This document shows positions 2-24,013 of a stretch of DNA of 32,000 bases, piece after piece (the first letter of the stretch is position 1; the number at the start of each line of letters is the position of its first letter). A model generated the notes under the pieces. The model did no database searches, was not told the origin of the DNA, and saw nothing but the letters and a program-made list of their open reading frames with translations. A program made the position numbers and the translations under genes. Source of the stretch: an uncultured bacterium (lineage in GTDB: Bacteria; Auribacterota; JACPWU01); contig CAZXEQ010000007.1 in NCBI GenBank assembly GCA_964640155.1, forward strand, positions 120,001 through 152,000, written 5' to 3'.

Positions 2-3000
2 GAAAAAGTTGCTAGAGGAGATTTTCAGGCTGATGAATGGAATGGTGAGGTTGAAGCAGCTTTTGGAAGGGCTTGGACCATTTTAAGAGAACGTGCAAAA
101 ATTTATGTAATTGAGAGAGAAATGATTAAGGCCATGGAAGTTTATGCTGTAATGGAAGATGTTTTAGCTGATTTTGCTACTTCAACGAATGTTCCTGATA
201 GTGAAAGTATTTCCCAATTGGGCGCTCATTTAAAAGCAGATCTTCAATTTTTGTCGAATGAGTTAGTGTCTTCCATGGATTATATTTGGACTGATTCGAC
301 GGCATTATTAAGATCAGATGAAAATGCTCCTTATCATTTGGCGGCGACTTATTTAAAGATCATTTTGGATGTGAATGCTGGAGTTCAAAGGGGAGAGAGC
401 TTAGGAGGAGCAGGAGTAGATAACTTTATGGGGATATCTTGGACATTACTTAGGAATAGAGCAGCACTTCATGTTCGTCGAGGAGAATTTGATGAAGCTA
501 GGGCTATTTATGCTGTTATGCGAGGAGTGTGTAATAATTTTATAGAATCATTTTACCTCGAAGCTGAGGAAAGACAGGTGCGTGAAGAATTTATTGTTCA
601 AAAATCGTTAGATTTAGATCGCGGTTTAAGCTCCTTAGCTTTGGCTCAAGCCAGAAGAGCCTTGGATGAAGGGAAAACGATTGATGTAATAGCAGATTTT
701 CTTTTGCCTGTGATTACAGCCAGTAAGGACAGTGAACTTATATCGATTCAAACTCAGGCTTCTGATTTTTTAGTTTCTAATTTACAGGAAAAAATGAGTG
801 AGGGGGAAGCTCTTTTTGAAGTAACAGCGCAAGCTTTGTTAACAGGGGATTGGGCTATTGGTGAGGCAAATCTTAAGGTAATAGAGCCAGTATTAAATCT
901 TTTAAATAAAGTAAGGTTGGAGTCTTTGTATGATGGAAAAGTAGATTCTAAAAGAGTAGACGCTTTTAGAGAAAGAGGAGGTGCTTTTAAACAAGCTTTT
1001 GCTTTTGGAAGTACTCGGTTTGCTGAATTAAGAAAGATGACTGATCTTGAGAGAACAATGATCGTGGGGGGATTTGAAGCAGCCAGAGCTTCAATAAACC
1101 AGCTGATATTGGTTTGCAAAGTTTTCCCTGGTGAAGAGGCTTGCTATGCAGAGATTTTGATTGCGGTTTTTGACCAAATCCAACAATTGTATGGAGAGCA
1201 AAATCCAGTTGAAGCATCTAGAATTAGATCCGAAATTCTGGGGACTCAAGAGAGAATAGCTCATGAGAGATCTCAAGATGCAAAACTTCCTGAATGGAAA
1301 AAGTATTTTGAAGAAAATCTTTTGCCGCGTATTTCATTGATTGAAGATTTAAGACGAGTGGTTGCAGCTCAAGGGAGCAGAGAGGATTTGGTGGCAGAGC
1401 AAGTGACTGCTGTGAATACTGTGCTAGTTGCAGAGTTGGCCAATGCACTTCATCATTCAGGATTAGAAACTCTTGCTGGAGAGTTTAGGACAGCTGTATT
1501 TGCTCATTACACAGCTAAAATCGATGAATATTTAACTGCTTCTCCTATCAAAATAGATGAGGCCAAAGAAGCTCTGGCTGTTCTTGAAGCTGTTGATAAA
1601 GAGAATGCAGCTATTGCTGTTTATCGACCAAAGGTGAAGGGAAAAACTCCTGTCCTAGATCCCGTTGAAAGAGCGTGTGCTGCTTTGGATGCAAATTTGA
1701 CGGCTGCTAATATTCAGGCTGTAACAGAAACTTTTGAAGAATATGAATTTGGAGAGAAAGATCTTGAAAGAGTTTTTGATTCTCTGAGTAAAGCTGTGGA
1801 AACCCTTTCGGATATTGAAGAAGTGAGCGAGAGTGATTATTCTGCATTAAAAGCAGGACTTGAATCTGCTGGAAGTAAGATAGAATCAGATAGTCAACTA
1901 GCAACGTGGGCGATAGATGCGGATTCTCCTCTTCGACTTCAAGCTAAGTATTTTCAAACAACTGTTTGGGTGTCAAGTACTCGACGTTTATTAAATCGTT
2001 TTAAGAAATCAAAAAAATTAGATGATTTAAGAGCTCTACTTGATGTTTTAGAACAATATCCTAATAAGAAAGGTAGAGAATTGTTAGGCTTTGCGGAAAG
2101 TTTAGCTGATGTATTAATTGAAAATGGAATAAATCTCAGTTTAGAAGATGGAGTTTCTGCTTTATTTGCTCGAACCTATCAACTGCTGGATGATATCAAT
2201 TCTGTATCTGTAGAGGTGGTGACATATCCGGGTTCATCTTCTAAACCTTCAGGTCTTCCTCCCCTTGAACCTGGAAGTGTTTCTAGCCCATCTTTTTCTA
2301 AAATAAAATCTCCAACAGCTATTTCATTAGATAGAGCAACTTCTTCCCGAAAATTGTCGTCTTCTGCTCTTCCTGCTCTTCCTAAGGGAGAAAAAACTTT
2401 AAAGAGGGCAAAGGTTTCCCTTTTAAATGAACGAAGATGTGAAGTTTTGAAGGGGATAGGGAGTAAAGAATTTTCGGAGATAGCAAGAGTATTTAGTAGA
2501 GGAACATGGGTTATAGAGCGAGGACAAATTAGAAGCTTTGCTAATCTTAATGGCCTATTTCGTGAAGCAAACCCTCCTTTTAATACATTAGGAGAAGTTG
2601 TTACAGATTCGGAAGCGAAAGAGAAAGTTTTTAACATGCTTTCTTCTCTGTTTGTTTCTAGATTGGAAGAAGTATCTGATGAAATAAGTAAAGGGAGTGC
2701 TGAAGTAAAAAAATTAGATCTTGCTGAAAAATTAAGTCTAACTTTTTTAAAGGCTGCTGAAGCTTTTGTTCAAAGATATGAAGTCAGTGGTTTGCCAGCT
2801 AGTCCAAGTCTCGCTGCTTTAAGAGCAGGAATAGCTGAACATCTAAAAAGAGGCATTAGAGATTTAGTGATTGCTTTAGAAGCTCAAGGAGATGAAGCTG
2901 CTATTTTAGATGAAGAAGGAGCAGAAGAGAAAGCAGCAGCATTTTATCAAAGAGCAATGAATCTTTATGAAAAGTTTAATGCTCTTTTGTTGGATGATCA

Positions 3001-6000
3001 GAAACTGGATTTTAGTGACATATTTATTTCACGAGTGAAAAAAGCAAAAGATCTTATTGATCAGGGCAGTATAGATGCAACTAAGTCAGATTCCGCTGAA
3101 AAGTTAAGTCTTCTTCTTTTGAATGCTGCGCGAATCTTTATTGACAGATATGAAGCAAGGGATTTGTCAGCTAGTTCGAGTGTAGTTGCTTTGAGAGCGG
3201 GTATAGCTGAACATTTGAAAGGAAGTGTTAAGGATCTTGCTTTGTATTTTTCTAATGAAGGAGATAGAGCGGCTGCTGTCGGTGGGATAGAGGCTGAAGA
3301 GAGTACAAATCTCCTTTATCAAAGAGCTGTTAATCTTTATGAAAAATTAAATGCTCTTTTGCCAGACGGACAAAAGATAGAAGCCAAAATTATTCGAGCT
3401 CTTAATGCAAAGATGGGAAAAGATTCAGATTGGAATGCAATCGAAACGGAAGCTTTGAGTATCACTGCTTCTCTCACTGCTGATCAAAGAAAAGAAATTT
3501 TGATTTGGGTTCAAGGCTGGATAGCTGAACCAGGAAGAGAAAAGTTTAGAATTCAAAAAGTTTTAGGAGCTGGAGAAAAAGGTCTTGTTTTTTTAATGAC
3601 TCGTCCAGATCTTAAAGGGGGACAAGAAGAAGTTGTTTTAAAGGCAAGTTTTATTGCAGCTGGAGATGAAAGTGTTGAAGTTAAATATGATCGATACTTA
3701 AAAGAATTTTCTAAAGATCCTGCTCTTCCTATCGATCATTTTGTGAGACTGCTGGATGCTGGACATGCTCCTTCTTCTTCTATTGAATGGTCTATTCAAT
3801 CATTTGCTGATGGTTTAGAAGGACCTTTTATCAACGCACAGGAGATGGGGCAGGAAACGGATGATTCTAGGAAGTTTGAGCATGGCAATTCTTTTGAAGG
3901 TCATTCAGTTGTTTATGATACTCGCCCTGATGAACAAATAGATCTTGCGATTCAATTGGCTCAAATTCTTGCTCATTTACAAAAGAAGAACATAGTTCAT
4001 GCAGATTTTCATGAAACCAATATTCAGATAAAAAGAGATTCCTCAGGACGTAGGAGAATTGTTGTCGTTTTGGATCCAGACAATTCGACTGATGTGGATC
4101 CTGATCATCTTTGGACGGTTGTACATATCCCATTAGATGCCTTAGAAAGAAAGGGTGCTTCTAGCCGATTGAGTTTGGTGGGTGTAGACGACAGTATAAA
4201 AGTTGATTTAATTCCTGTGTCTGGCTGTGAGGGTGGTCGTGTAAATGTACATCCTGATCAAAATCTTTTAGTTGTTCAACTTAAGATTTCTAGAGAGAAG
4301 ATGTTGGGGAGAAATAAGGGCTTGCCATTCACATTTACGTTTAATGATAGAGAAAATAAATTTGAGATTACACCTGTTTTACGTAAAAAGACTTCAGATG
4401 AAAAAGCTCAAGCTAACATGGATGTTCAGTCAGGTGTTCGGTTGATGCTTGAGCTATTGACAGGTAGAATTATTGATCCTACGCAGCTTTTCAAAGAAGG
4501 CAGACGTATTTCCTCTATTCAAAAAGACCAAATGCTAAAGCATTGGGCAGAAGTGATGAAAGTGGATATCTCTGCTTTGCCTGCCTCAGTAAGTGAGTTA
4601 GCTCCTAAAATTCTAGATGCAATTTATAAGCTTTATGAAGGCAAATCTACACTTGAGGAATTTGAAGTTGAGATGCGAGCGTTTCTTGCTATTCTTTCTC
4701 CTATTTTAGCTCCTGCTGCAAAGCCTGAAGCACCCAGACCACCACCGCCTGGAGCAAGTGCTCCTCAACCTCCTGTTGAGCCACCATCTCCAGCAGCTCC
4801 TCCTGCTGCACCTGCAACATCTGCTGCCACAGAAGCGGCAACAGATGTGGATACGCTTTTGGATAGGGTAGAGAATGTACTTCAAAGTACAGATTTTGTA
4901 GATTTAGTTGAGATTCGCAATCTTTATGATGGAGAGAAAAGCCCGGTGATGATTCTTAAAGAAGAGACTTTTTCGCCAGAACAAAGAGCACGACTAGAGG
5001 CTTGGCCCTCATTGCTTCATGCTGCTTTTGAGCGTTTTGCTGTAACTACAAATGCACGTAGAGATCCTCATAGCAGAGCCTTAGACGAACTTAATCAAGG
5101 AAAAGCAATACTTGTTTTCTCTACTCTGTTTCGACTTGTAGATTCAATGATAGGTGTTTATGCCCAAGAAGAATTAGATGATTCAACAATCAGGAAGGAA
5201 TCACAGCTTCTTTGGGGAGAATATAATACAAACCATGATTCTGTTTTACAAACTAAAGGACAAACACTCGATGCGGCAACCGAACAAAAACCTTTCTATA
5301 GAATTATAGCAGACTTATATCAAGTTGCTGATAAGACATTACCATCTACAGAAAGAATTGATGCAGCTAGAATTCGTGAGGTCAGAAGACTTGCAGGTTT
5401 AAGAGTCAGTACACCTCCAGCTTCTGTTGCTGCGATTACTTTTACTAGGGGCGCTAAATTTAAGGGAGGTAAAATAGAAAGGACCGTCATTGCAGTAGAA
5501 GGAGACGAAGTTATTTGTTGGGTTAATGAAGATGGAACTGAATATGTCGAAAAAGGCCCTTCTCTGATATTAAGAGAAGCTGTAACAAATGCACGAGCAA
5601 AACTCTTAACCTACGAAGCTTCTACTCCTGCAGCTATTGCAGCAGCTCAACCTGCGATTGAGGTCTATGAAAAGGCAATAGGTGCTAGTGTAAATGTGTG
5701 GGAGGGCAGAGCGGATAATAAGATTTCTTTGGCAGATCTTCAGGGGCTCATCCCAACAGATGATTCATTAGATGCAGGTGATGCAATCATAGATGCACCT
5801 TCGGCTGGGGGTGAACCTGCACTTGCTGTGGGTCCTGCTCCAATGAGAGCGCCGACATATCCTTCTCCAGCGATGCCTGTAGCTGCTACGGGGCCATCAT
5901 CCTCAGCACCTGTTACGCCTCCCACAGCTGCGTCAGCGCTTCCTGAAACAGAGATATCTTTATCAGGAGAGCTTTCTGTATCAGTGGAGGATTTGAAAGG

Positions 6001-9000
6001 AAGGGTTTTAACGCTGACATTAGGAACAAGCAAATATTTCAAAATGGAAGTCAGTGTTGTTTATGATGAAGAGGAAGGTCGATTTATTTTATTTGATGGA
6101 GATGGTAAAGGTAATCATCGGTTTTTAAATGAAGGGGAAGTAATTACTGTAGGGCGTAAAAGAGCAGACTTGGAAACAGTAGGAATTTCAGATTTAGCAG
6201 ATTTTGAAGTTAATAATTCCAGTCTTTCAGAATTTAGGACTCTTATGGCGCATAAACAGATTTCTGTTTCTATTCAAGGAGGAAAACTGATTGTCAAAAG
6301 TATTTCGGACAAAACAACGCTTTATCATGCTGAAACAGTTGTTTTACCTATAGCTCCTTCTATAAAAGATCCAATAACAACGGCAGATGTTGTTCAGGGA
6401 GCAAGCAAACCTTCTCTTAACCATCCTGCATGGAATGAAGATTGTGGTTTTGCAGAAATAATCAATGGCTGGGTTGTGACAGGGGTTTTTGATGGTATGG
6501 GAGGTTATGGTGGTGGAGAGTTAGCTAGCAATATTACACGAATGATTGTGCATGCGGCACTAAAACGGGACTTTTCTTCTGGTGTTAATGAAGACAGTAT
6601 TCCTCAAATTCTTGCCGATGCTTTTTTAAAAGCGCAAGAAATTATTCAATTCATTGTATCTTTGAGAGATTTTCTTCAAAGCACACCTGAGCAACTTTTG
6701 GGTATTGCGGAAGCTATGGAACGAGAGCACGGTGTTAATAAAGACGAGTTTAATGATTTGCTCTTGCGTATTGTCCGAAGGGGAAAACCTATTTCTGAAA
6801 TGGGAACTGCAGCGCTTGTGCATGTCGTAGTTCCTCAAGCTGATGGAACTTCCAATGTTTATCTTATTCAAGCAGGAGATGTTCGTACTTATCTTGTTTC
6901 TTCTGATGAAACTTTTGAACCTCTCACAGTTGATAATATTTCTGGCAGCGACGATGGTTCCCTTAAAACAATTACACTTGAGCAAGTGAGAGAAAAATGG
7001 AAAGCGTCTCATCTGCAGGCTTTAGTTACAGTTGAAACGGATAGAGATTTAGGGGCTTTAGGGCCGATTGAAAGGATTATGTTTAATAGGCGACATACGG
7101 TTGAAAATGTTCTTAAAAGGGATTACAAACCTGTCATAACAGTTGCTAAAGGTGTGAAAGGAATACTTTTGACAATGACGGATGGTGGACATGACCCGTT
7201 GATTGATCGTGTAATCGAAGAAGAGTTTAAGGCAGGATCCATTGCTGAAGCTCCTCAAAGAATTCTTCGTCGAGCAAGAAGTGTGAAAACAGGTCCTCGG
7301 GCTAAAGACGATGATGCTCTCATTATGGTAACCCAAATGCCAGAAGTTGTTGCAAAATCTGCTTCTGCTTCGGCCGGCCCGTCAGCAGGTGCGCCAGCCC
7401 CAGCTTCAGCACTGGTTGCTGCGCCTACATCTGCTGCTCCTCTTCAAGTAAACGTCGGAGATGTTTTCCTGGCTATAACAGGGTTGAGGCGCGTGGTTGT
7501 TCGAAAAGATGGTGATGCTCTTTATTGTATAACCACGAATGGAAGCAATATTTATTTAGAATCATTGGATGTTGCAAAGATTAGATCAGATGTTAATACA
7601 AAGTTTCTTGCACCTGCTACCTCTAATACTACTGATCAAGAGCATATTGACAACGCTTTAAAACCAGGAAATGTTTTTAGCAATGCAACAACCAATGAAC
7701 ATCTTATTCTGGTCTCAGAAGATCGAACAACAGGCGCGATGTTTTTCTTAAAAATTGTGGGAGATTTAACAGATTTGAGTGCTGTAGATACGGCTACAAT
7801 TGAAACGGGCTTAACTATCAATGATGTTTTAGGTAAAGCTTGGGCTTATAACAAAGATGTAAGTGCGAACCCCACTTTGGGTGTAGAGGTGGCGAAAGTT
7901 ACTGGGGCGATAAATAAGCTTGAGGCTGCAGGTGCTACAGTTGTAAGTGGTAGCGTATGGCTTGATTTAGAGAGACAATCCCTGGGGATTGATTTTAAAA
8001 ATTATAATCAAGGAGATGTCATTATTGATCCCAATGTTTCAGATAATGAAGGTAGAAAAATAGGAGATTCTTATCTTTTTATTATGGAAGATGGAGATAA
8101 TGCTATTTTTTATTCTTTCGGGAAAAAACAACTTATTCATATTTCAAAGGTAGAAGTTATAGAGGGAATTAAATCTAAAAATCTTCAATATAATCATCGA
8201 GATCAAAGCCGAGCTGCTCATGAAAAAATGGCGAAAGATTTTGAGCCATTTCTACGGACGATAAATACTATTCCTCTTACAGATATTCAAGATGAAATTA
8301 TTCCTCAAAGCAATACGATCAAAATAGATCCTAGACAATTGGGTAGAGACCGTTTTATGACTTTAACTATTCCTGGTAGAAATCCAGGAGAAACCGAAGA
8401 ATATTGTTTAATGTATGATGTTCGAGTGGACAAAGTGATCGTTTGTCCCTTCTTTAAGACGGGTCTTAAACAATGGGCTTATTTACAGCCTGGATCTAGT
8501 CCAAAATATAAACAGACAAAAACTCCCAGTTTTATGAATCATGTGGAAAAGCAAATTACTCTTTTTAGAGATGTAAATGGTCAATTAGTTATTCGGGCTT
8601 TATCTGCGGACATTTCTCTTCAGGTTTATCCGGGTGCATCAAATGCTCTTAATATGCATGTGGGAAAAGAGGTGGTTTCTGATGGGAATGAAAAAGCTTA
8701 TGCAGAACAAGCTGCTCGTTACCATGCTTATCAGAGTGAAGATGCCTTTTTTACTTTATTTTTACGCCGAGCTGCTGTTTTAGGTCTTTGTGATGGAGTC
8801 GGAGGGCGTGATGCTGGAAATATTGCTAGCCAGGTGGCGAGTCTTTTAATCCAGGCTTCTATCAAAGATTTTATGAGTGCTCATGAAGGTACAGGTCGTC
8901 CGTTAACAAACAAAGATATAAAAAATTGCTTAACTCTGGCAATTCAATTTGCAGATAGAAAAATTTTTGAATTATCCCAAATTGAAATTAGCGATATTGA

Positions 9001-12000
9001 TACAGATGGAGCAGTGGTAGTGGGTAGTCCTCTTGAGGATTTATTTCAATGGGATTTGAGAGGAGATGATTTAAATCAAGTTTTGATATTCGTTACAACG
9101 GCTTTAAAAGCAGCTCGGGATAATCGACCAGGAGAGGCTAAACCATTTTTGGGTATGGCCACGACTGTTGTTGTAAGTGTTGTTTTTGTAAATGACAAAG
9201 GAGAGCAAGAAACCGTCGTTGCCAATGTCGGAGATAGTCGAGCTTATAGGGTGTATGAAAATGGAAGTGTAGAAAGAATTACACGAGATGATGGGGCTAT
9301 TTACAATACGATCACTGAGGCTGTTGATGAAGAAGTGATTCCACTTGGAGCAGGAGATCAAATCCTTTTAGATCCTACAAAAGCTTCTGAGATTTTTGAA
9401 AGCTTAGATGCAGGTTTGGATGATACAGGTGTTTCTGAAGATCGAATTAGAGAATATGCGCAGATTTATCAAGGAAAAGGAGCTATTACTGCTGCAGATG
9501 CTGCAATCATTCTTACCGATCATACGACTGAAGCTGCTAGAGTTATTTTTCGCAAAGTACATACATGGCGGCTACTGAATCTGGCTATTTTCTTAAGTAA
9601 ATATGATAGAAAGTATGAAGGGTTGCAGAAGTTGGTAACGGCTTTAGATGGTGCTCAGTTAGAAAGTATTTTAAGCCGTTGTGGTGTTCCTGATCCTGAG
9701 CTTCAAAGAATGTCAGTTTCTGGTCGAGTGTCAGCAGAGCTTTTGGCCCAATATGTTAAGCAATACGAGGAAACCCATTCTAATTTTGTTCACTTCCTTC
9801 AAGAATCTTTAATAAAGGCTTTTTATAAAAAGTGGTGGCAGGATGATGTCAAGCTAGAAGAGGTTGGGATGGATGATCATGGATTAGCCAAAAAGCTATA
9901 TTCTTCTAGGAATACAATTTCAGCAAGTGTTGGCAGGGGTCATTTTACAGGAGAAAGAGGCCCAAGATTCTTTAGTCCTAGTGGAACAGGCAAAGGACGT
10001 CTTATTGTTGTTTGTGATGGTGGTCCGGATAATGTTCCAGACCGACAGTTGGAAGAAGCTATTGAAAAGAAGTTAAGAAAAGGCGCTTCTTTTGAAGATA
10101 TACCTATAGAAGAACTGTATGTCACAATGGCACGTGACAATGTGGATGCTGAAAGATCACAAACTGCAGATGATGATATTTCCTGTGCTAGTGTTAAAAT
10201 GCCTGTGAAGCTTGCTGCTCCTGTTGCTTCGACAAGACCTGCACCACCTCCTGTTGTACGACTTGCAGCAAGCGGTGGAGTTGCTGCGGGAGCCCCGGCT
10301 CAGCCAGGGCAGCCGGGAGCGAAAGTTCAGGTGGCACCAGGATCTGCTCAAATGTCAGACGCTAAAAAAGCTGCTGCTGTGGGAGTAGCCCCGGAATTAC
10401 TTAAGAACGACCGATTAATTAATTCTTCTATACAGGATTTGAGATCATGGTTTTCATCTTTAAAAACTCCTTGGAAAGTAATAGGTGGAGGAGTGATTAT
10501 AGTAAGTCTTATAGGCGTTGTAGTATCAGGAGCAGCGGTTTCTATTATAAGTTTTCTTAATCCGTTTGCAGTAAATCTTCTCATTGGAGTTGGTAGTGCA
10601 ACACTTGTTGGATTTTTATTATATTCTAAAGTTGATAAGACAAGTGAAGATAGATGGCCAATAATTATTATCCCCACCATACTTACATTTCTTTCTATGA
10701 CGGCAGGAAGTTATATTGTGATGGATAGTTGGAATTCTTTAGTGAATTGGCTTAATAATTTTATTGCTCATATTGCCACGTCTTCTGATACAAACTCTTC
10801 TTCTCCTGTGACTATATCGACCGCGTCTATTACAACTTTATTTAAACCCCATCGTACAAAGCAATCTACGCTGACTTTAAAAGAATACGTAGAAAAAATT
10901 TATGAGATTTATTCAGATCTTTCTACTCAGAAATGGGTTAAGAGAAGTTTAAAAATATTTATTGTGATTGCGCCTCTTGTTGTATTTTTATTTCCTCAGC
11001 TTGCATTTGCAAATAACGGTTCCGTCTTAGGATGGAATGCTCCGACTTTTGTCCTAATTTCACTTATTCTAGCTGCCATTGTATTAGGTGTTAGAGCTAA
11101 TTTGAGAACCCATAAACTTGAAAGACGGGCTCCCCTTACAAAAGATTTGATGAATTTACATCTTATCGAAAGGCTTTTAAAGGAACATGGCAAAAGTGCT
11201 AAATCATCTCCTCCTGTTGAATTTGTCCTTACAATGGAGTCGCCAGATGATTTTCATGTGGCTGCTGCCCTTCCTGGTGGGGAAGTACTTACAAGTAGGT
11301 TTGATAGAGACACAGAGGACGAACTTAATCAAAAAAATAAAGAGGCTCAGGAACATGTCCGTGACTATTGGATGAGGCGTAAAGGGTATGTGCCGCAATT
11401 TATGGATAGTGCTTTTGGCCTTGGCATTAGGAATAGAATTAAATTCTATGCAGGAATGTTTTATAGAGCTGATAAACCTGCAAATGCAGAAGCATCATTC
11501 CTTCGAAGAAACATAAAAAATGAAACTGTACAATTTGAGATTGGAATCAATCTTCAGCTTTTAGAATATCCTATGCTTTTTGAACTTTTTCTTGTTCATG
11601 AATTTCACTATGCCGATTTGTTTATTTTTAGAGAAACTGTTAGGGAGGGGAAATTGGGAATACCTCAAGAGCAACAAGCTCGTTTGTCTGGGTATTTTCT
11701 TGGAGAATTTAATGATGTGGGGGCGGCCGTTAAGGAAGGTTTTGAAGAAACAACTATTTATTTTGAGGATTTTAAATACTTTCTTTCTTTAGAGCCAGAA
11801 CAGAGAAAACAAATTATCAAGGGTCTTGAGAAATTAAGAACTCAATATCCTGGTGTTACAATTTTTGAGTCTTTCTTTAAAGTATTCAGCGAATTGGCTA
11901 TGTATACTCTTTCTGATGATTCTGAAAAACACTTAATGGGTTTAGCAATAGAATTGGCAAAAAATCAATCTACAAGTAATAAAGAAGTTTTTCCAAAATA

Positions 12001-14116
12001 TGAACGAGCGCTTGTTCCCTATGGAGTAAGCCTGGTTGATCATGCGCTTTCTGTTCACAGAATGTTAATGTCATTTGGATCTTTAACAGAGGATGAAGTT
12101 GAGAGCATTTTAAAACGAAAAAAAGTTTTAGAATTTATAAATCCCATTCCTAGAGGTTATGAAGCAAATACTCCAGCAGCCAGTGCACGTGTTTTGGGGA
12201 GAACAGTAGAGCGTATGAGAGGAGTGAAAGGAGGTCCTGCCAGTCATTTTGCGAGCCCCTTTGGGATGGGAGTCGATGCTGGACTTGCTCCCAACAATGA
12301 GGATGCAGGTATAGTGATACAGAAATTGATGAACGCTATGGAAGATTCAAAAACTTTAAGTGAAAGACAAATTCAAAATGGTCCAAGAGTTGTTTTTCAT
12401 CAAGAAGATAAAGCTGTTGCAGATCAAGTTGAAAGTTTTATGGGAACAGAAGCTTATCGTACGTTAGGGGATGGAGTGAAACAAACTCTTCAAAATATAA
12501 GAATTGCGCTTTTACCTCCGGATCAAGATTCGGGGGATCAACCAGCTCAAATATCCATTGTCGAGAATCCTTTGGGGGCAAGTTATGCCCATTACGGTCA
12601 AGATGAAGAACCTTCTATATTTATGAGAGCGGAGTTTTTAAAACGATTACTCACGTTAAAAAATGGACCTCAAGTTTTTGTAACATTACTTAAGCTTGAA
12701 AGTAATCGTTATGAGCATCGGCAAGGTGGTAAAGAAGATAATCGTTCTTCTGCTCAAGTGGTTAAAGATGCAGGTATCACAAGAGCTGAGCTTTCAGCTT
12801 TATTGGATGCGATTGTGGATATTGAATCGGATATTCTTTTAGAAAGAAAAGATTTAGATGTGACTGAATTGATTATTCGCTCGGCGACTGTTTTAGAACA
12901 CAAAGCTGATCAAGCCAGTGTAGATAATATTATTTTAGGAAAGTTGAGAGGAAAACTTCTAAATGTTTTAGTTGCCAAACTGGCTCAGAGAATGAAAAAT
13001 CAAGAAGAGCGTTTAAGTCAAATTCGAGCTGCTGTGACAAAGCTTGAAACAGCAAGAAGTAAAGATGAAGGTCATACTTTAGTTAAGGCTTTAAATGAAG
13101 CTTTGGGAAATATTCAAAATATTCAATCTATTGGGTTTGATCTTTTGATGGGGGAAGTGGTTGTTTATACTTCTGATGGAAAGACTCAAACGGTAGAACT
13201 TGGGGCTGCTTCTCAAGCTCTAAGTCTTATGATTGAAAAGTTAGTTGGAAATGTACAAATGGTAGTATTGGATCTGCCTGCTGGTGAGGACCCAGATGAA
13301 CTCTCAAGTTTTCTTGAAAATACAATCGGAATTTTGATGAATCCGGATCAAAGATCTTTAGCCCGAGATGAAAAGCCGCTTTCGATTGGAGATTTGACTG
13401 CACAGCGTTTGAAGATAGGGGATGGAGAATTGGTTCATGTGGGGCGAGGAATAGGTAACTTAAGAAAAATGACAGCTAAGACAAAGCATAATCTCACAGC
13501 ATTGGATGCAGTTAAATTTTTTGATGCAGAAGCAAATAAAAATACAGAACATCCTGTTCTTATAGAAGCAGCACTTTTACAAGCAAAATTGGCTTTGTTG
13601 GAAGGCTCCGAACGAGAAGCTTTTTTAAAGCTCTGTGAAAAATATTATGCTGTGATTCGAGGACAAAATATAGAAGGACTGTCGGCAGAAGTTCAAGAAG
13701 CTTTATGGAAAAATTACAATAAGTTTTCCCAATTACCTTCTGATTTTAGAGTCGTTATTCTATCAAGTGAAGTAGAGCGTACAGATGAAATGAAAGATGC
13801 AATGATTTTAAAATTTAATTCTGAGCAAAGAGATCAACCTAATGCTCTTACTCAAGTGATGAGTTTCGCTTCTTATGTTGCCAATGTAGGTAAAGAAGCT
13901 GCAAAAGGTGATTCTCGGGCTGCAGAAATGTTTGAAGCCCTTCTCAAAGCACTCTATGCTGGAGACGAGGAGAAGATGCAAGAAATACTAGATAATATGT
14001 CTTTGAAAGAAATTTTATCTAACCCAGAATTCGTTTTCCCTCCCATCAATACCCATTTCATGCAAGATCTGGATTCCTTCTTGCGGGCCCAACGCACCGT
14101 CGAAGCGATGGCGTAG
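2..14116 (+). CDS. Giant multidomain membrane-anchored protein, 5'-partial in this window (helical/TPR-like N-region, kinase-like domain, two PP2C phosphatase domains, Pro/Ala linkers, TM cluster, unknown C-terminal region)
   Basis: The frame has no stop from nt 2 to TAG 14114-14116. The ORF track starts at ATG 122 (4664 aa), but codons 2-121 are also open and continue a repeat motif. The longest competing ORF in the other five frames is 152 aa. Recognisable kinase-like and PP2C motifs are listed as separate features. Confidence 0.92.
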   Translation, partial: EKVARGDFQADEWNGEVEAAFGRAWTILRERAKIYVIEREMIKAMEVYAVMEDVLADFATSTNVPDSESISQLGAHLKADLQFLSNELVSSMDYIWTDSTALLRSDENAPYHLAATYLKIILDVNAGVQRGESLGGAGVDNFMGISWTLLRNRAALHVRRGEFDEARAIYAVMRGVCNNFIESFYLEAEERQVREEFIVQKSLDLDRGLSSLALAQARRALDEGKTIDVIADFLLPVITASKDSELISIQTQASDFLVSNLQEKMSEGEALFEVTAQALLTGDWAIGEANLKVIEPVLNLLNKVRLESLYDGKVDSKRVDAFRERGGAFKQAFAFGSTRFAELRKMTDLERTMIVGGFEAARASINQLILVCKVFPGEEACYAEILIAVFDQIQQLYGEQNPVEASRIRSEILGTQERIAHERSQDAKLPEWKKYFEENLLPRISLIEDLRRVVAAQGSREDLVAEQVTAVNTVLVAELANALHHSGLETLAGEFRTAVFAHYTAKIDEYLTASPIKIDEAKEALAVLEAVDKENAAIAVYRPKVKGKTPVLDPVERACAALDANLTAANIQAVTETFEEYEFGEKDLERVFDSLSKAVETLSDIEEVSESDYSALKAGLESAGSKIESDSQLATWAIDADSPLRLQAKYFQTTVWVSSTRRLLNRFKKSKKLDDLRALLDVLEQYPNKKGRELLGFAESLADVLIENGINLSLEDGVSALFARTYQLLDDINSVSVEVVTYPGSSSKPSGLPPLEPGSVSSPSFSKIKSPTAISLDRATSSRKLSSSALPALPKGEKTLKRAKVSLLNERRCEVLKGIGSKEFSEIARVFSRGTWVIERGQIRSFANLNGLFREANPPFNTLGEVVTDSEAKEKVFNMLSSLFVSRLEEVSDEISKGSAEVKKLDLAEKLSLTFLKAAEAFVQRYEVSGLPASPSLAALRAGIAEHLKRGIRDLVIALEAQGDEAAILDEEGAEEKAAAFYQRAMNLYEKFNALLLDDQKLDFSDIFISRVKKAKDLIDQGSIDATKSDSAEKLSLLLLNAARIFIDRYEARDLSASSSVVALRAGIAEHLKGSVKDLALYFSNEGDRAAAVGGIEAEESTNLLYQRAVNLYEKLNALLPDGQKIEAKIIRALNAKMGKDSDWNAIETEALSITASLTADQRKEILIWVQGWIAEPGREKFRIQKVLGAGEKGLVFLMTRPDLKGGQEEVVLKASFIAAGDESVEVKYDRYLKEFSKDPALPIDHFVRLLDAGHAPSSSIEWSIQSFADGLEGPFINAQEMGQETDDSRKFEHGNSFEGHSVVYDTRPDEQIDLAIQLAQILAHLQKKNIVHADFHETNIQIKRDSSGRRRIVVVLDPDNSTDVDPDHLWTVVHIPLDALERKGASSRLSLVGVDDSIKVDLIPVSGCEGGRVNVHPDQNLLVVQLKISREKMLGRNKGLPFTFTFNDRENKFEITPVLRKKTSDEKAQANMDVQSGVRLMLELLTGRIIDPTQLFKEGRRISSIQKDQMLKHWAEVMKVDISALPASVSELAPKILDAIYKLYEGKSTLEEFEVEMRAFLAILSPILAPAAKPEAPRPPPPGASAPQPPVEPPSPAAPPAAPATSAATEAATDVDTLLDRVENVLQSTDFVDLVEIRNLYDGEKSPVMILKEETFSPEQRARLEAWPSLLHAAFERFAVTTNARRDPHSRALDELNQGKAILVFSTLFRLVDSMIGVYAQEELDDSTIRKESQLLWGEYNTNHDSVLQTKGQTLDAATEQKPFYRIIADLYQVADKTLPSTERIDAARIREVRRLAGLRVSTPPASVAAITFTRGAKFKGGKIERTVIAVEGDEVICWVNEDGTEYVEKGPSLILREAVTNARAKLLTYEASTPAAIAAAQPAIEVYEKAIGASVNVWEGRADNKISLADLQGLIPTDDSLDAGDAIIDAPSAGGEPALAVGPAPMRAPTYPSPAMPVAATGPSSSAPVTPPTAASALPETEISLSGELSVSVEDLKGRVLTLTLGTSKYFKMEVSVVYDEEEGRFILFDGDGKGNHRFLNEGEVITVGRKRADLETVGISDLADFEVNNSSLSEFRTLMAHKQISVSIQGGKLIVKSISDKTTLYHAETVVLPIAPSIKDPITTADVVQGASKPSLNHPAWNEDCGFAEIINGWVVTGVFDGMGGYGGGELASNITRMIVHAALKRDFSSGVNEDSIPQILADAFLKAQEIIQFIVSLRDFLQSTPEQLLGIAEAMEREHGVNKDEFNDLLLRIVRRGKPISEMGTAALVHVVVPQADGTSNVYLIQAGDVRTYLVSSDETFEPLTVDNISGSDDGSLKTITLEQVREKWKASHLQALVTVETDRDLGALGPIERIMFNRRHTVENVLKRDYKPVITVAKGVKGILLTMTDGGHDPLIDRVIEEEFKAGSIAEAPQRILRRARSVKTGPRAKDDDALIMVTQMPEVVAKSASASAGPSAGAPAPASALVAAPTSAAPLQVNVGDVFLAITGLRRVVVRKDGDALYCITTNGSNIYLESLDVAKIRSDVNTKFLAPATSNTTDQEHIDNALKPGNVFSNATTNEHLILVSEDRTTGAMFFLKIVGDLTDLSAVDTATIETGLTINDVLGKAWAYNKDVSANPTLGVEVAKVTGAINKLEAAGATVVSGSVWLDLERQSLGIDFKNYNQGDVIIDPNVSDNEGRKIGDSYLFIMEDGDNAIFYSFGKKQLIHISKVEVIEGIKSKNLQYNHRDQSRAAHEKMAKDFEPFLRTINTIPLTDIQDEIIPQSNTIKIDPRQLGRDRFMTLTIPGRNPGETEEYCLMYDVRVDKVIVCPFFKTGLKQWAYLQPGSSPKYKQTKTPSFMNHVEKQITLFRDVNGQLVIRALSADISLQVYPGASNALNMHVGKEVVSDGNEKAYAEQAARYHAYQSEDAFFTLFLRRAAVLGLCDGVGGRDAGNIASQVASLLIQASIKDFMSAHEGTGRPLTNKDIKNCLTLAIQFADRKIFELSQIEISDIDTDGAVVVGSPLEDLFQWDLRGDDLNQVLIFVTTALKAARDNRPGEAKPFLGMATTVVVSVVFVNDKGEQETVVANVGDSRAYRVYENGSVERITRDDGAIYNTITEAVDEEVIPLGAGDQILLDPTKASEIFESLDAGLDDTGVSEDRIREYAQIYQGKGAITAADAAIILTDHTTEAARVIFRKVHTWRLLNLAIFLSKYDRKYEGLQKLVTALDGAQLESILSRCGVPDPELQRMSVSGRVSAELLAQYVKQYEETHSNFVHFLQESLIKAFYKKWWQDDVKLEEVGMDDHGLAKKLYSSRNTISASVGRGHFTGERGPRFFSPSGTGKGRLIVVCDGGPDNVPDRQLEEAIEKKLRKGASFEDIPIEELYVTMARDNVDAERSQTADDDISCASVKMPVKLAAPVASTRPAPPPVVRLAASGGVAAGAPAQPGQPGAKVQVAPGSAQMSDAKKAAAVGVAPELLKNDRLINSSIQDLRSWFSSLKTPWKVIGGGVIIVSLIGVVVSGAAVSIISFLNPFAVNLLIGVGSATLVGFLLYSKVDKTSEDRWPIIIIPTILTFLSMTAGSYIVMDSWNSLVNWLNNFIAHIATSSDTNSSSPVTISTASITTLFKPHRTKQSTLTLKEYVEKIYEIYSDLSTQKWVKRSLKIFIVIAPLVVFLFPQLAFANNGSVLGWNAPTFVLISLILAAIVLGVRANLRTHKLERRAPLTKDLMNLHLIERLLKEHGKSAKSSPPVEFVLTMESPDDFHVAAALPGGEVLTSRFDRDTEDELNQKNKEAQEHVRDYWMRRKGYVPQFMDSAFGLGIRNRIKFYAGMFYRADKPANAEASFLRRNIKNETVQFEIGINLQLLEYPMLFELFLVHEFHYADLFIFRETVREGKLGIPQEQQARLSGYFLGEFNDVGAAVKEGFEETTIYFEDFKYFLSLEPEQRKQIIKGLEKLRTQYPGVTIFESFFKVFSELAMYTLSDDSEKHLMGLAIELAKNQSTSNKEVFPKYERALVPYGVSLVDHALSVHRMLMSFGSLTEDEVESILKRKKVLEFINPIPRGYEANTPAASARVLGRTVERMRGVKGGPASHFASPFGMGVDAGLAPNNEDAGIVIQKLMNAMEDSKTLSERQIQNGPRVVFHQEDKAVADQVESFMGTEAYRTLGDGVKQTLQNIRIALLPPDQDSGDQPAQISIVENPLGASYAHYGQDEEPSIFMRAEFLKRLLTLKNGPQVFVTLLKLESNRYEHRQGGKEDNRSSAQVVKDAGITRAELSALLDAIVDIESDILLERKDLDVTELIIRSATVLEHKADQASVDNIILGKLRGKLLNVLVAKLAQRMKNQEERLSQIRAAVTKLETARSKDEGHTLVKALNEALGNIQNIQSIGFDLLMGEVVVYTSDGKTQTVELGAASQALSLMIEKLVGNVQMVVLDLPAGEDPDELSSFLENTIGILMNPDQRSLARDEKPLSIGDLTAQRLKIGDGELVHVGRGIGNLRKMTAKTKHNLTALDAVKFFDAEANKNTEHPVLIEAALLQAKLALLEGSEREAFLKLCEKYYAVIRGQNIEGLSAEVQEALWKNYNKFSQLPSDFRVVILSSEVERTDEMKDAMILKFNSEQRDQPNALTQVMSFASYVANVGKEAAKGDSRAAEMFEALLKALYAGDEEKMQEILDNMSLKEILSNPEFVFPPINTHFMQDLDSFLRAQRTVEAMA
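2723..3382 (+). repeat. Internal tandem duplication inside the giant CDS: two copies with a 372-nt (124-aa) period and a conserved 96-aa core
   Basis: Copy 1 starts AEKLSLTFLKAAEAF at 2723 and copy 2 starts AEKLSLLLLNAARIF at 3095. My ungapped hand alignment gives 53 identical residues of 96, including ALRAGIAEHLK and YQRA-NLYEK-NALL. The similarity is also visible at nucleotide level. Confidence 0.85.
3545..4690 (+). other. Protein-kinase-like (PKL superfamily) domain of the giant protein, atypical catalytic loop
   Basis: Gly-rich loop LGAGEKGLVF (GAGEKG at 3566-3583); VLK lysine motif; catalytic loop IVHADFHETNIQI (3998-4021) in place of HRDLKPEN; LDPD in place of DFG; subdomain-IX-like DVQSGVRLMLELLTGR around 4425-4470. 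Confidence 0.6.
4709..4842 (+). other. Pro/Ala-rich low-complexity linker 1 of the giant protein
   Basis: APAAKPEAPRPPPPGASAPQPPVEPPSPAAPPAAPATSAATEAA; a locally GC-rich stretch. Confidence 0.8.
5792..5953 (+). other. Pro/Ala-rich low-complexity linker 2 of the giant protein
   Basis: DAPSAGGEPALAVGPAPMRAPTYPSPAMPVAATGPSSSAPVTPPTAASALPETE. Confidence 0.8.
6434..7333 (+). other. PP2C (PPM-family) Ser/Thr phosphatase domain 1 of the giant protein
   Basis: PPM motifs occur in the canonical order: NEDCGF (6434), GVFDGMGG (D at 6491), MGTAALV, QAGDVRTYLV, LLTMTDGGHD, DDDALIMVTQ (ends about 7333). Confidence 0.75.
7339..7447 (+). other. Pro/Ala/Ser-rich linker 3 of the giant protein
   Basis: EVVAKSASASAGPSAGAPAPASALVAAPTSAAPLQ. 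Confidence 0.75.
8729..10201 (+). other. PP2C (PPM-family) phosphatase domain 2 of the giant protein, split by an insertion of about 205 aa
   Basis: YQSEDAFF (8729), GLCDGVGG (D at 8792), GMATTVVV, ANVGDSRAYRV, then an insertion at 9293-9907, then RNTISASVG, LIVVCDGGPDNV, ADDDISCASVKM (ends 10201). Confidence 0.75.
10207..10350 (+). other. Pro/Ala/Gly-rich linker 4 of the giant protein
   Basis: KLAAPVASTRPAPPPVVRLAASGGVAAGAPAQPGQPGAKVQVAPGSAQ. Confidence 0.75.
10472..11092 (+). other. Cluster of 5 (possibly 6) predicted transmembrane helices in the giant protein
   Basis: Hydrophobic runs: VIGGGVIIVSLIGVVVSGAAVSIISFL; FAVNLLIGVGSATLVGFLLYS; WPIIIIPTILTFLSMTAGSYIVM; LKIFIVIAPLVVFLFPQLAFA; APTFVLISLILAAIVLGV. 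The last is followed by the basic stretch RANLRTHKLERR. Confidence 0.7.
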
Positions 14117-14148
14117 CATATTTACTTTTAACCTTAAGTTCTAGCCAG

Positions 14149-14154
14149 TATAAT
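14149..14154 (+). promoter_or_regulatory. Possible -10 box (TATAAT) immediately upstream of cinA
   Basis: A perfect TATAAT lies 8 nt before ATG 14163. I see no Shine-Dalgarno sequence and only weak -35 candidates, which would imply a leaderless or near-leaderless transcript. Confidence 0.25.
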
Positions 14155-14162
14155 TAACCTTA

Positions 14163-15422
14163 ATGAAAAAAATTATCACTATCTCTACAGGCACGGAGTT
14201 GATGTTGGGTTATGTCATGGACCAAGATTTTGGATTTATGGCAAAGGAGTTTTCCAAAATAGGATGTCCTGTGTATCGCCATTACACGGTTGGGGATGAT
14301 TTTAAGGAGCTTCAAAAAGTTTTTGCAGAAGCTCTTTTTCTGTCTGATATTGTTGTTCTATCAGGGGGATTAGGTCCTACCACAGATGATTTGACCCGAG
14401 AAGTGGTGTCTAGCGTCCTCAAAAGGCCTTTGGAGATGAACAAAACTGTTCTAAAGGATCTTAAGCGTAAATTTCATAAAAGGGGCCTAGAAGTTCCTCT
14501 ATCTAATGAGAAGCAAGCTCTTGTATTAAAAGGAGCAAAAGTGATTTCCAATCACTTTGGAACAGCTCCTGGAATGTACATTCAAGAAAAAAAGAAAAAA
14601 ATTTTTTTACTTCCAGGTCCACCTTTTGAATTAAATCCCATGTTTGAGAGAAATGTAAAAGCTGTTATTCAAGCTGCGATTAAGAAAGATCGACTTCGTT
14701 TTATAAGTTTTAGAACTTTTGGAATTCGGGAATCAGATGTTCAAGAAAGAATGAGTAAAATTTTTAAGGATGCTCCAAAATTTTTGAATGGTCTTGGATA
14801 CACGTCGTCACCTCATGGTGTGGATGTTCGAGTAGCTGGTAAAGAGCGAAGTTGGGATAAACTTTTTTCTTTTATTCAACGGCTCGAAAAAGATCTTAAA
14901 GAGTGGATTTATGGATTGAATCGAGAATCAATGGAAGAGATTGTTGCAAAATTATTATTTCAAAAAAATAAAACTTTAGCCATTGCTGAATCTTGTACAG
15001 GAGGACTTTTAGCTCAGAGACTTACCAGCATTTCTGGGATTTCTAAGGTATTTAAATTAGGTGTTGTTTCTTATTCTAATGAAGCAAAACAAAATATTTT
15101 AGGTGTTCGATCAAAAACTCTTCAGAAATTTGGTGCTGTGAGTCAAGAGGTTGCTTCAGAAATGGCTTTAGGTGTTCGCAAGAAAGCTAGATCTGATTTT
15201 GGTGTATCTATCACAGGCATTGCAGGTCCAACAGGGGGATCTCCTGAAAAACCTGTAGGGTTGGTGTGGATTGGTTTAACAGATGGTAAAAAAACTTATG
15301 TGCAAGAGCATCATTTTCTCGGCAGCCGCGATGTAATTCAATTCAAAGCCTCTCAAGCGGCGTTAGATATGTTGAGAAGATTATTACTGCATCAGAATCG
15401 AGCGAACCAAGAAATTATTTAA
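14163..15422 (+). CDS. cinA: CinA-family competence/damage-inducible protein (MoCF-type domain plus PncC-type NMN amidohydrolase domain)
   Basis: GGLGPTTDDLTRE motif in the N-terminal domain and LAIAESCTGGLLA in the C-terminal domain; positioned upstream of recA. Confidence 0.9.
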   Translation: MKKIITISTGTELMLGYVMDQDFGFMAKEFSKIGCPVYRHYTVGDDFKELQKVFAEALFLSDIVVLSGGLGPTTDDLTREVVSSVLKRPLEMNKTVLKDLKRKFHKRGLEVPLSNEKQALVLKGAKVISNHFGTAPGMYIQEKKKKIFLLPGPPFELNPMFERNVKAVIQAAIKKDRLRFISFRTFGIRESDVQERMSKIFKDAPKFLNGLGYTSSPHGVDVRVAGKERSWDKLFSFIQRLEKDLKEWIYGLNRESMEEIVAKLLFQKNKTLAIAESCTGGLLAQRLTSISGISKVFKLGVVSYSNEAKQNILGVRSKTLQKFGAVSQEVASEMALGVRKKARSDFGVSITGIAGPTGGSPEKPVGLVWIGLTDGKKTYVQEHHFLGSRDVIQFKASQAALDMLRRLLLHQNRANQEII

Positions 15423-15488
15423 AAATGGGTCCCGGATATCCCACGGGACTGCTTCGCTGAAAGATTTCCGGGATGACAAGCTAAAATA

Positions 15489-16043
15489 ATGCGTATTTTT
15501 ATTGCAGTTGAAATTCCTCATGAAATTCGAGAAAAAATCTATAAAGATTTAGTGCCTCTGCGTAAAACCTTCCCAAAAGTTAAATGGATTCGTCCTGAAA
15601 ATCTTCATTTAACTCTGAAATTTTTAGGAGAAGTTTCAGAGAAAAAGCTTAAAGTTATTCATGAGAAAATATCGGATCTTTCATCTTTCAAATCTTTTTC
15701 GATTAAATTTTTGGGTTTAGGTGGTTTTCCAAATTTAAGTCGTCCAAAAGTTATTTGGATGGGGATTGATCAAGGGGAGGAAGAACTATCTAATATAGCT
15801 TCTTATCTAGAATCTGAACTGGAAAAAGTGGGATTCCACCTTGAGAATCGCTCCTTTCAAGCACATTTGACTTTGGCAAGAGTAAAAGATTTTAGAGAGG
15901 TAAAAGGCTTTTGCGAAAAAGCCTCTTTTTTTGATAAAACAAGCTTTGCGAGTTTTTCGGTAAATATGGTATCTTTGATACAAAGTTCCCTGACTCGGGA
16001 GGGAGCCACTTATCAATGCTTGCATCAGATAAGGTTAGGTTAA
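15489..16043 (+). CDS. thpR: RNA 2',3'-cyclic phosphodiesterase (2H phosphoesterase, LigT/ThpR family)
   Basis: 184 aa with the two H-x-T-x motifs of the family (NLHLTLKFLGE and QAHLTLARV). Confidence 0.88.
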   Translation: MRIFIAVEIPHEIREKIYKDLVPLRKTFPKVKWIRPENLHLTLKFLGEVSEKKLKVIHEKISDLSSFKSFSIKFLGLGGFPNLSRPKVIWMGIDQGEEELSNIASYLESELEKVGFHLENRSFQAHLTLARVKDFREVKGFCEKASFFDKTSFASFSVNMVSLIQSSLTREGATYQCLHQIRLG

Positions 16044-16091
16044 AAGGCGTATAACTTTTACAATTTTTCATTTTAAATAAAGGGGCCAGCA

Positions 16092-17147: not shown

Positions 17148-17162
17148 TTTTTATTAAAGAAG

Positions 17163-17264
17163 TAGTTCGTAGTTAGTAATTCTGCGCCAGAGGCGCATCC
17201 GCCTTTAGTGGAGTATTTCGCATTGTTAGCGAACTACGAGTTACATGTACGAACTATTTTTTTT
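17163..17264 (+). terminator. Rho-independent terminator embedded in a compound palindrome between recA and alaS
   Basis: TAGTTCGTA (17163-17171) pairs with TACGAACTA (17248-17256), followed directly by T8 (17257-17264). An inner perfect hairpin TGCGCC-AGA-GGCGCA lies at 17183-17197. A second copy, CGAACTAC (17231-17238), offers an alternative pairing partner. Confidence 0.6.
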
Positions 17265-17288
17265 GTTTGAATGTATGTAAGGGATAAA

Positions 17289-20008: not shown

Positions 20009-20037
20009 TTGACAAAGTAAGCCTCTATTCTTACAAT
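20009..20037 (+). promoter_or_regulatory. Sigma70-type promoter upstream of mraZ
   Basis: TTGACA (20009-14), an exact 17-nt spacer, then TACAAT (20032-37). Confidence 0.6.
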
Positions 20038-20653: not shown

Positions 20654-20682
20654 TTCTTGATCTAAAAATGAAAGGGGGGGCT

Positions 20683-23436: not shown

Positions 23437-23479
23437 AAAGAGTTGTCACTTTATTTTAGAAGATAAAAAACCCATTTTA

Positions 23480-23977: not shown

Positions 23978-24013
23978 TTATTCCTCCTTAAAAGAATTAA
24001 CTTTAGAATCGAT

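Follow-up and report, generated by a model that had tools for sequence, protein, structure and literature searches.

Single open reading frames (ORFs) of exceptional length, with a signal peptide, transmembrane (TM) helices and multi-enzyme or regulatory content, are described from Omnitrophota and other members of the Planctomycetes-Verrucomicrobia-Chlamydiae (PVC) group in several reports (10.1101/2023.11.21.568195; 10.64898/2026.06.07.730766; PMC12057145), and the PVC phyla are enriched in proteins of more than 5,000 amino acids (aa) (PMC11573180). The Auribacterota genome paper is silent on giant genes (PMC9324843). Here we analyze a stretch of 32,000 nucleotides (nt), referred to as the window, from an uncultured bacterium of this phylum (lineage JACPWU01; GenBank assembly GCA_964640155.1, contig CAZXEQ010000007.1, positions 120,001 to 152,000 of the forward strand). 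Positions 2-14116 of the window are very probably the 3' half of one ~29.1-kb gene encoding a 9,702-residue modular protein, hereafter the window protein, which contains a protein-kinase-like domain, two PP2C phosphatase domains, a bundle of hydrophobic helices, and a conserved C-terminal module (C-module).

The window protein resembles the giant PVC proteins of West-Roberts et al. (2023) and the other reports in being a many-thousand-residue single ORF of an uncultivated organism, in which divergent enzyme-like domains are strung together and accompanied by a signal peptide or TM helices. Both are mostly unannotated, have ordinary flanking genes, and place cytoplasm-type enzymes behind export signals. 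Unlike those proteins, however, the window protein lacks, in its visible half, SecA_DEAD, dockerin/TSP3, peptidase C39/S8, carbohydrate-active enzyme (CAZyme) and histidine kinase domains and has few TM helices, whereas it possesses a Ser/Thr-type kinase-like domain, two PP2Cs, and the conserved C-module. No PP2C or Ser/Thr protein kinase is reported for giant proteins in the available portions of three of the sources (10.1101/2023.11.21.568195, 10.64898/2026.06.07.730766, PMC11573180), and the modules found at the head and tail of the present proteins go unmentioned in the compared parts of the giant-protein literature. The window protein thus adds a new family and a new order of domains to the giant PVC proteins, a class already known, and the first-pass annotation of this DNA, which knew of no characterized protein with such an arrangement, stands on that point.

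Opposing pairs of Hanks-type kinases and PP2C phosphatases include PknB/PstP of Mycobacterium and StkP/PhpP of Streptococcus, and membrane PP2Cs of the SpoIIE and RsbU type are also known. The domains of the window protein best match StkP and PknB on the kinase side and PstP, tPphA, and Stp1 on the phosphatase side, and the likeness extends to membrane anchoring and to the placement of opposing activities together. In contrast to these pairs, it is one 9,702-residue chain with two phosphatases per visible kinase-like domain, without a detected PASTA or FHA domain, and with D-x-H-x-x-N and DPD motifs. A looser parallel is offered by MARTX toxins, in which conserved N- and C-terminal repeat regions surround variable effector domains; by analogy, both groups are very large polypeptides with conserved termini around a member-specific enzymatic middle. 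However, glycine-rich A/B/C repeats and a cysteine protease domain are lacking, the window contains no type I secretion system genes, there is no sequence or fold similarity, and the giant family uses an N-terminal Sec signal peptide.

Frame 2 of the plus strand is open from base 2 to a TAG at 14114-14116, a run of 4,704 sense codons with no internal stop. The remaining five frames contain 199 to 471 stops each over the same 14.1 kb, with longest open runs of 66 to 196 codons, and the largest rival ORF encodes 152 aa (2179-2637, minus strand), as initially noted. At the stop chance of 0.072 per codon expected from the base composition (39% GC), the probability of so long a run without a stop is about 1e-152. 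Codon usage correlates with that of the 13 flanking genes at r = 0.88 in frame and at 0.29 and 0.18 in the shifted frames, and GC contents at codon positions 1, 2, and 3 are 0.54, 0.39, and 0.23. Tandem repeats and long dispersed repeats are absent from the giant ORF, in which the sole repeat is a 47-nt pair of 89% identity, so there is little to invite mis-assembly. The giant ORF is a real coding sequence.

No stop occurs upstream of base 2, and the ORF therefore extends beyond the left edge of the window. A longer call of the gene exists on Logan contig SRR8893623_18027 (36,978 bp), which was located via the product of the neighboring cinA gene; this contig is identical to window positions 4163-19030 (100% identity, 0 mismatches over 14,868 nt). 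The gene ending just before cinA on this contig is called at 9,702 residues, with a start at contig position ~2,956, approximately 14,990 nt to the left of window base 1. Because about 3 kb of other sequence precedes this start, the call is complete and not a truncation at the contig edge, and the window consequently covers the last 48% of the gene. The first-pass annotation was correct in recognizing a single giant ORF, but its length of just over 4,700 codons falls short of the called gene by about twofold. The 9,702-aa protein is absent from a representative library of 1.84 billion sequences, the visible N-terminal 400 aa have no match in GTDB species genomes or JGI metagenomes, and a 40-nt exact pattern used to search for the 5' half was not present in viral contigs.

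A protein of 6,482 aa from a different sample (P0001; Logan run SRR22387960) is encoded by one ORF and is collinear with aa 98-4704 of the window protein, with identities of 41% in the kinase-like domain, 37% in the beta modules and second PP2C, and 37% in the TM bundle and C-terminus. It shares the helical region, the kinase-like domain, three small beta modules, a beta-rich module, the second PP2C, the five-helix bundle, the region following it (region X), and the C-module; it lacks the block of the first PP2C and carries a second kinase-like copy with a canonical DFG. Immediately downstream of the P0001 gene lies a cinA with 67% identity to the window cinA, in a genome with 45% GC as opposed to 39%. 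The architecture is therefore not the orphan that it had seemed, and the reading frame is intact across species, since P0001 is collinear in one ORF at the same place. Preservation of a 19- to 29-kb frame across that distance is the strongest argument against an assembly artefact. It is extremely unlikely that two or more genes were joined here by chimeric assembly or by sequencing errors that removed stops: the sequence is metagenome-derived, and the Logan contig possibly stems from the same reads as the window and so is not a fully independent check, but the separate run of the other species reproduces both the modules and their order within a single ORF, repeats that could seed chimeras are lacking, and codon usage is uniform, with zero stops over 14 kb.

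The kinase-like domain contains a G-loop (GAGEKG), the lysine of VVLKAS, a catalytic loop HADFHETN (H1333, D1335, N1340), and a DPD (D1358) in place of DFG, with an insert of ~130 aa before the NMDVQ...LLTG helix. GAGEKG, VVLKAS, HAD, N, and the D of DPD are kept, and no variation is seen at H, D, N, and D among the window copy and both copies of P0001. The catalytic-loop Lys is replaced by His, as in APH and choline kinases, which gives a D-x-H-x-x-N loop; DFG occurs in just one P0001 copy among the three, and no APE motif was identified in the domain. All 21 of the weak single-sequence matches in PDB are protein kinases, as are all 61 matches of a profile built from the three copies (best, StkP, 6.6e-4; PknB, 0.011), suggesting that a kinase fold is probable and that the domain was rightly proposed at the outset. 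The Pfam cut-offs are not reached by PK_Tyr_Ser-Thr (16.4 bits; cut-off, 23.1), Pkinase (12.5; 31.7), or APH (14; 23.2), and for this reason we use the label "kinase-like"; the domain likewise falls below the curated Pfam threshold for membership in the Hanks-type kinases.

Both PP2C domains proposed earlier are supported by family profiles. The first matches NCBIfam Stp1_PP2C_phos (8.2e-10) and Pfam PP2C (21.1 bits, cut-off 20.3; whole protein), and its best PDB matches are PstP (0.006) and tPphA (0.016). The second matches Pfam PP2C_2 (6.3e-8; 32.8 bits, cut-off 24) and Stp1_PP2C_phos (7.3e-17). Membership is at the domain level, the NCBIfam equivalog cut-off of 230 bits not being reached. 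All acidic metal-binding motifs (xED, DGxGG, GDSR, DG, DD) are intact in both domains and are conserved in P0001. Because the PP2C motifs and the catalytic residues of the kinase-like domain are kept between species that have only ~40% identity in the latter domain, retained catalysis can be argued.

The 5-6 TM helices that had been noted downstream of the enzymes are confirmed as five strong hydrophobic helices and possibly a sixth, a weak candidate within a 77-aa loop of the cluster. Beyond them, the last ~1,000 residues had been considered free of recognizable motifs. This holds for the ~435 aa of region X, which have no family match, but not for the last 566 aa, which form the C-module. 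A HMMER search with the last 1,200 residues against the 1.84 billion cluster representatives recovered 26 proteins, all of which align to the last 520-570 residues and do so at their own extreme C-terminus, with E values down to 8e-201. An alignment of the window protein with 13 members (A1) has 12 invariant positions, including P380, N433, P542, P543, M565, and A566, and the module ends with the motif ...FPPI...D(I/L)(E/D)S(Y/F)(L/I)RA...E.MA, in which the final Met-Ala is invariant. No member tested has a Pfam or NCBIfam match in this module, nor does it have a PDB sequence match. Its AlphaFold2 model is confident (pLDDT 83.3, pTM 0.73), and a Foldseek search of PDB with this model returned nothing at E < 1e-3 (best E = 9.5e-3, TM 0.16-0.23). 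Taken together, the sequence comparisons indicate that very large proteins ending in the C-module make up a rare family that has not been described before.

Members of this family differ in what precedes the C-module. P0001, P0002, P0003, P0007, and P0013 have in common an N-terminal module of ~600 aa (N-module; 26-40% identity) with invariant R-D-x-H, E-G, and G-G-F-H, preceded by a signal-peptide-like segment. The section enclosed by the two modules holds kinase-like and PP2C domains in the window protein and P0001, an EPSP/MurA-like domain in P0007, and AAA_5 and VWA domains and a beta-propeller in P0013; in P0002 (3,658 aa), which carries both modules, no enzyme is recognizable between them. 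An amino-acid kinase with a receiver domain is present in P0004, and LOG and methyltransferase domains are present in P0018, a protein from a Chlamydiota metagenome-assembled genome (MAG) annotated as "LOG family protein". The genes of P0004 (L164, 32-7474) and P0018 (L165, 44-12460) start 31 and 43 nt from contig ends and are thus truncated, so their deposited lengths of 2,480 and 4,138 aa are minimum lengths; that both are cut at contig ends of public MAGs would explain their apparent lack of a head. The named members belong to Ca. Theseobacter exili (Auribacterota, PVC), with three paralogs including P0004, and to MAGs designated "Chlamydiota bacterium". P0002, P0007, and P0013 have a predicted signal peptide and no other TM segment, and on this basis their C-module is predicted to be exported.

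The N-module is far more widespread than the C-module, with 109 relatives in a scan of JGI metagenomes. In 45 loci analyzed, it starts between residues 26 and 277 of the ORF, and only one of the starts lies at residue 151 or later. Long ORFs of at least 3,000 aa account for 21 of the 45, of which 18 are open at the end of the fetched DNA, and eight of the 45 are stand-alone proteins of ~500-555 aa. One ORF, on a 2.17-Mb contig (L162), joins the N-module to WD40 propellers and a Peptidase_M48 domain. In all 44 of 44 ORFs, the module is preceded by the n-region, h-region, and AxA-type site of a Sec signal peptide (hydrophobic 13-mer of at least 2.0 in 34), and none of the 79 N-module loci (L085-L163) has a C-module within reach. 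The model of the N-module (pLDDT 74.8) has a split alpha/beta core with a ~300-aa helical insert, and the module has no Pfam match and no significant PDB match. The split core and the N-terminal R-D-x-H...E-G and C-terminal G-G-F-H motifs, which may be compared with paired GxxH motifs, are reminiscent of the TraB/PrgY/GumN-Tiki-ChaN/EreA proteins, and there are sub-threshold hits to Pfam TraB_PrgY_gumN (E = 0.62, one of five members) and, by Foldseek, to HopBA1 (5t09; E = 1.4, probability 0.41). However, neither hit is significant, the ~300-aa insert splits the core of the N-module, and the N-module is not seen in the window, so that kinship with TraB/Tiki/ChaN is a lead only.

The best reading of these observations, which we hold tentatively, is that the window protein is a membrane-embedded Ser/Thr phospho-signalling scaffold. 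We infer topology and role here, with the signal peptide, the N-module, and the first helix bundle of the window protein placed by analogy with P0001. The N-module would be exported after a Sec signal peptide, and a first bundle of three helices would bring the chain back into the cytoplasm, giving the kinase-like domain and the PP2Cs access to ATP and Mn/Mg; the five-helix bundle seen in the window would then export the last ~1,000 residues. A double-anchored transmembrane scaffold of this kind would hold opposing kinase and phosphatase in cis and may adjust its own Ser/Thr phosphorylation, or that of envelope proteins in its vicinity, according to ligands of the exported end modules, as a giant fused counterpart of receptor-type PknB/PstP signalling. 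Strong helices number three just after the N-module in P0001 and five before the C-module in both P0001 and the window protein, with the same spacing. If the enzymes are inside and the head and tail outside, three plus five is the sole fitting parity, and simply counting the strong hydrophobic peaks gives these numbers too.

Several points weigh against such a scaffold. The signal peptide, N-module, and first helix bundle of the window protein are predicted, with P0001 as the only model. The positive-inside rule speaks against the proposed topology, with both flanks of the bundle and the stretch before TM4 being rich in Lys and Arg, and the weak sixth segment, which is conserved with P0001, would put the C-terminal 1,000 aa in the cytoplasm. 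A phosphopeptide-binding (FHA) domain was not found with a three-copy profile against PDB or in Pfam and NCBIfam. The kinase-like domain, given its scores below the Pfam cut-offs, its DPD, and its APH-like loop, could act on a small molecule or be inactive. Finally, relatives without TM segments bear cytoplasm-type enzymes (MurA-like, AAA_5) behind a signal peptide, and a logic that simply assigns such enzymes to the cell's own cytoplasm does not account for these relatives.

These TM-less relatives lead to a different possibility, which we regard as unlikely, namely, that the protein is an exported or delivered effector platform. The end modules would then serve as an export, docking, or translocation chassis, the variable middle would be cargo for the cytoplasm of a host or prey, and, in a logic like that of MARTX toxins, the hydrophobic bundles would insert into the target membrane. 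Complete TM-less members with a Sec signal peptide are predicted to be exported as whole chains, the C-module is joined to unrelated cytoplasm-type cargo (P0004, P0007, P0013, P0018), three paralogs occur within the one MAG of Ca. Theseobacter exili, and the invariant free C-terminus ...MA resembles a recognition signal. The presence of members in PVC lineages that include obligate symbionts is also consistent with delivery, and giant PVC proteins have been read as extracellular weapons (10.1101/2023.11.21.568195; PMC12057145). However, the neighbors of the giant gene are housekeeping genes, with no secretion-system, chaperone, or immunity genes nearby, and its position is stably syntenic and not island-like. 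Pfam reveals no processing protease resembling a MARTX cysteine protease domain and no RTX or glycine-rich repeat, and the window protein has HExxH only in a degenerate form. Internal helix bundles after a Sec signal peptide normally stop transfer in the membrane of the producer, and Auribacterota are inferred to be free-living fermenters in their genome description (PMC9324843). A more general form of the idea, to which we give still less credence, is that PVC bacteria use the signal peptide with N-module and the C-module as a chassis dedicated to giant multi-enzyme polypeptides, serving in their production, export, or delivery. As a self-contained platform, it would carry interchangeable cytoplasm-type cargo to the cell surface or to another cell, and the tail may be recognized by its invariant free C-terminus.

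The protein might instead be a structural tether, that is, an envelope-spanning or membrane-organizing scaffold in which the kinase-like and PP2C domains are degenerate, binding pseudoenzymes. Helical repeats, linkers, and modules without an enzymatic signature account for over half of the visible residues, P0002 combines the two end modules with no recognizable enzyme, the kinase-like domain is highly divergent, and the invariant residues of the C-module are mostly P, A, G, and L, suggesting a structural and not a catalytic role. We nevertheless consider a tether improbable, as no metal-binding Asp motif has been lost from the PP2Cs and the Gly-loop, Lys, and H-x-D...N...D are all present in the kinase-like domain, with conservation between species. 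It is very improbable that the protein belongs to one of the described Omnitrophota types (Archaeovorin/dockerin), with functions in attachment and cell-wall degradation: SecA_DEAD, dockerin, TSP3, peptidase C39/S8, CAZyme, and carbohydrate-binding domains are all absent from the visible 4,704 residues, which contain only 5-6 TM helices, and the named relatives are from Auribacterota and Chlamydiota MAGs and not from Omnitrophota. A nonribosomal peptide or polyketide megasynthase (NRPS/PKS) and an RTX or adhesin repeat protein were considered as well and were dropped, since no domain or repeat supports either.

The remaining parts of the chain are listed with the domains in Table 1. The presence of Pro/Ala-rich linkers, predicted in the first-pass annotation, is confirmed, and five of them divide the chain into blocks. 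The opening region had been called helical and TPR-like; its composition is indeed helix-forming, but "TPR-like" has as its basis a single Pfam match (TPR_4) at E = 0.05. This region is weakly similar to P0001 aa 2351-2767 and 3281-3436 (20-31% identity). The tandem duplication of ~124 aa proposed in the first-pass annotation is real, with improved bounds of nt 2639-3001 and 3011-3373, and it has left a trace in the DNA as the 47-nt repeat, the two copies of which are spaced by 372 nt. The small beta modules fall within a 37%-identity alignment to P0001 that covers aa 2481-3405. Each PP2C is preceded by a beta-rich module, and aa 2080-2194 align with aa 2843-2960 (26% identity, E = 1e-6), suggesting that the two units of beta-rich module and PP2C arose by an old duplication. 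FHA identity was considered for the beta-rich modules and found no support, as the three-copy profile had one unrelated match in PDB (E = 0.88) and there were none in Pfam and NCBIfam. A zincin-type peptidase in region X was also considered. HExxH motifs occur upstream of the C-module in P0001 (aa 5607, HEQAH), P0003 (1266, HEFGH), P0013 (3814, HELAH), and P0025 (1187, HELGH). In the window protein, the residues aligned with HEQAH of P0001 (aa ~3870, nt ~11610) read HEFHY, so a possible site of this type appears degenerate there, and region X has no family match.

Table 1 Features of the giant gene and its 3' spacer in the window
Feature	Residues (aa)	Window position (nt)	Strand	Basis or remark
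3' 48% of giant gene		2..14116	+	4,704 codons + TAG; left edge open; 9,702-residue call on identical Logan contig
Helix-former-rich region	1-742	2..2227	+	49% helix formers (composition)
Pro/Ser-rich linker 1	743-764	2228..2293	+	Composition
Tandem duplication, ~121-aa unit	880-1000 and 1004-1124	2639..3373	+	51% identity, E = 7e-33
Protein-kinase-like domain	1181-1563	3542..4690	+	PDB profile matches; motifs; below Pfam cut-offs
Pro/Ala-rich linker 2	1566-1619	4697..4858	+	Composition
Block without family match, small beta-type module at end	1620-1931	4859..5794	+	Absent from P0001
Pro/Ala-rich linker 3	1932-1986	5795..5959	+	Composition
Beta-rich module 1	1987-2144	5960..6433	+	Duplicated along with start of next PP2C
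PP2C domain 1	2145-2445	6434..7336	+	NED, DGMGG, GDVR, TDGG, DDDA; profile matches
Ala/Ser/Pro-rich linker 4	2446-2483	7337..7450	+	Composition
Three small beta-type modules	2484-2760	7451..8281	+	Conserved in P0001; no family match
Beta-rich module 2	2761-2905	8282..8716	+	Self-comparison; profile search
PP2C domain 2	2906-3412	8717..10237	+	SED, DGVGG, GDSR, CDGG, DDDI; long helical insert
Pro/Ala/Gly-rich linker 5	3413-3442	10238..10327	+	Composition
Five strong hydrophobic helices	3493-3702	10478..11107	+	Hydrophobicity; same arrangement in P0001
Region X, ~435 aa	3703-4138	11108..12415	+	Common to P0001 only, 22% identity; no family match
C-module, 566 aa	4139-4704	12416..14113	+	26 representatives; alignment A1; AlphaFold2 model
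TATAAT box		14149..14154	+	8 nt before cinA ATG, within 46-nt spacer 14117-14162

The genes flanking the giant gene are core genes, as reported initially, and the neighborhoods of 80 recA loci, selected in a genome scan as the best recA matches, contain no giant homolog. The organism is probably a PVC bacterium; its RecA, AlaS, and CinA, with identities of 40-68%, point to scattered phyla and do not by themselves place it. The spacer between the giant gene and cinA (14117-14162) has no Shine-Dalgarno sequence and no terminator-like site after the giant ORF. In the orthologous spacer (L082, 29450-29507), a TATAAT is present 9 nt before the ATG, and cinA may thus have its own promoter and a leaderless mRNA and not be expressed by read-through from the giant gene. 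GC skew is strongly positive (0.06-0.35) over positions 1-23000, where genes are on the plus strand, and near zero over 23000-32000, where they are on the minus strand; the coding strand is G-rich along the whole giant ORF. Further downstream, a near-consensus sigma-70-type site (20009-20037; TTGACA, 17 nt, TACAAT; 11 of 12 positions matching) precedes mraZ (20081-20524), which is followed by a gene for a GGDEF diguanylate cyclase (20668-21456) and not by rsmH and the dcw cluster. The minus strand of 23480-31524 encodes a DUF520/YajQ protein, a five-gene oligopeptide ABC transporter (two ATPases, two permeases, and a family-5 binding protein), a peptidase C26/GATase, and an amidohydrolase. This is an ordinary gene set, none of which has a link to secretion or to the giant gene. 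The window contains no tRNAs or other RNA genes.

Giant multi-enzyme genes were already known from PVC bacteria, and the biological role proposed for this one is inferred. If the reading as a phospho-signalling scaffold is true, the window protein, with 9,702 residues, a kinase-like domain, and two PP2Cs, would be among the largest bacterial proteins built on Ser/Thr phospho-signalling; if the end modules are instead a dedicated chassis, both would represent new folds with a new function. The family offers two handles on giant bacterial proteins, a rare C-module with a confident predicted fold and a widespread head consisting of a signal peptide and the N-module, and because each end module is shorter than 600 residues, they could be expressed and studied alone. 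The family also sharpens a puzzle posed by Omnitrophota, the occurrence of cytoplasm-type enzymes behind export signals in giant proteins.

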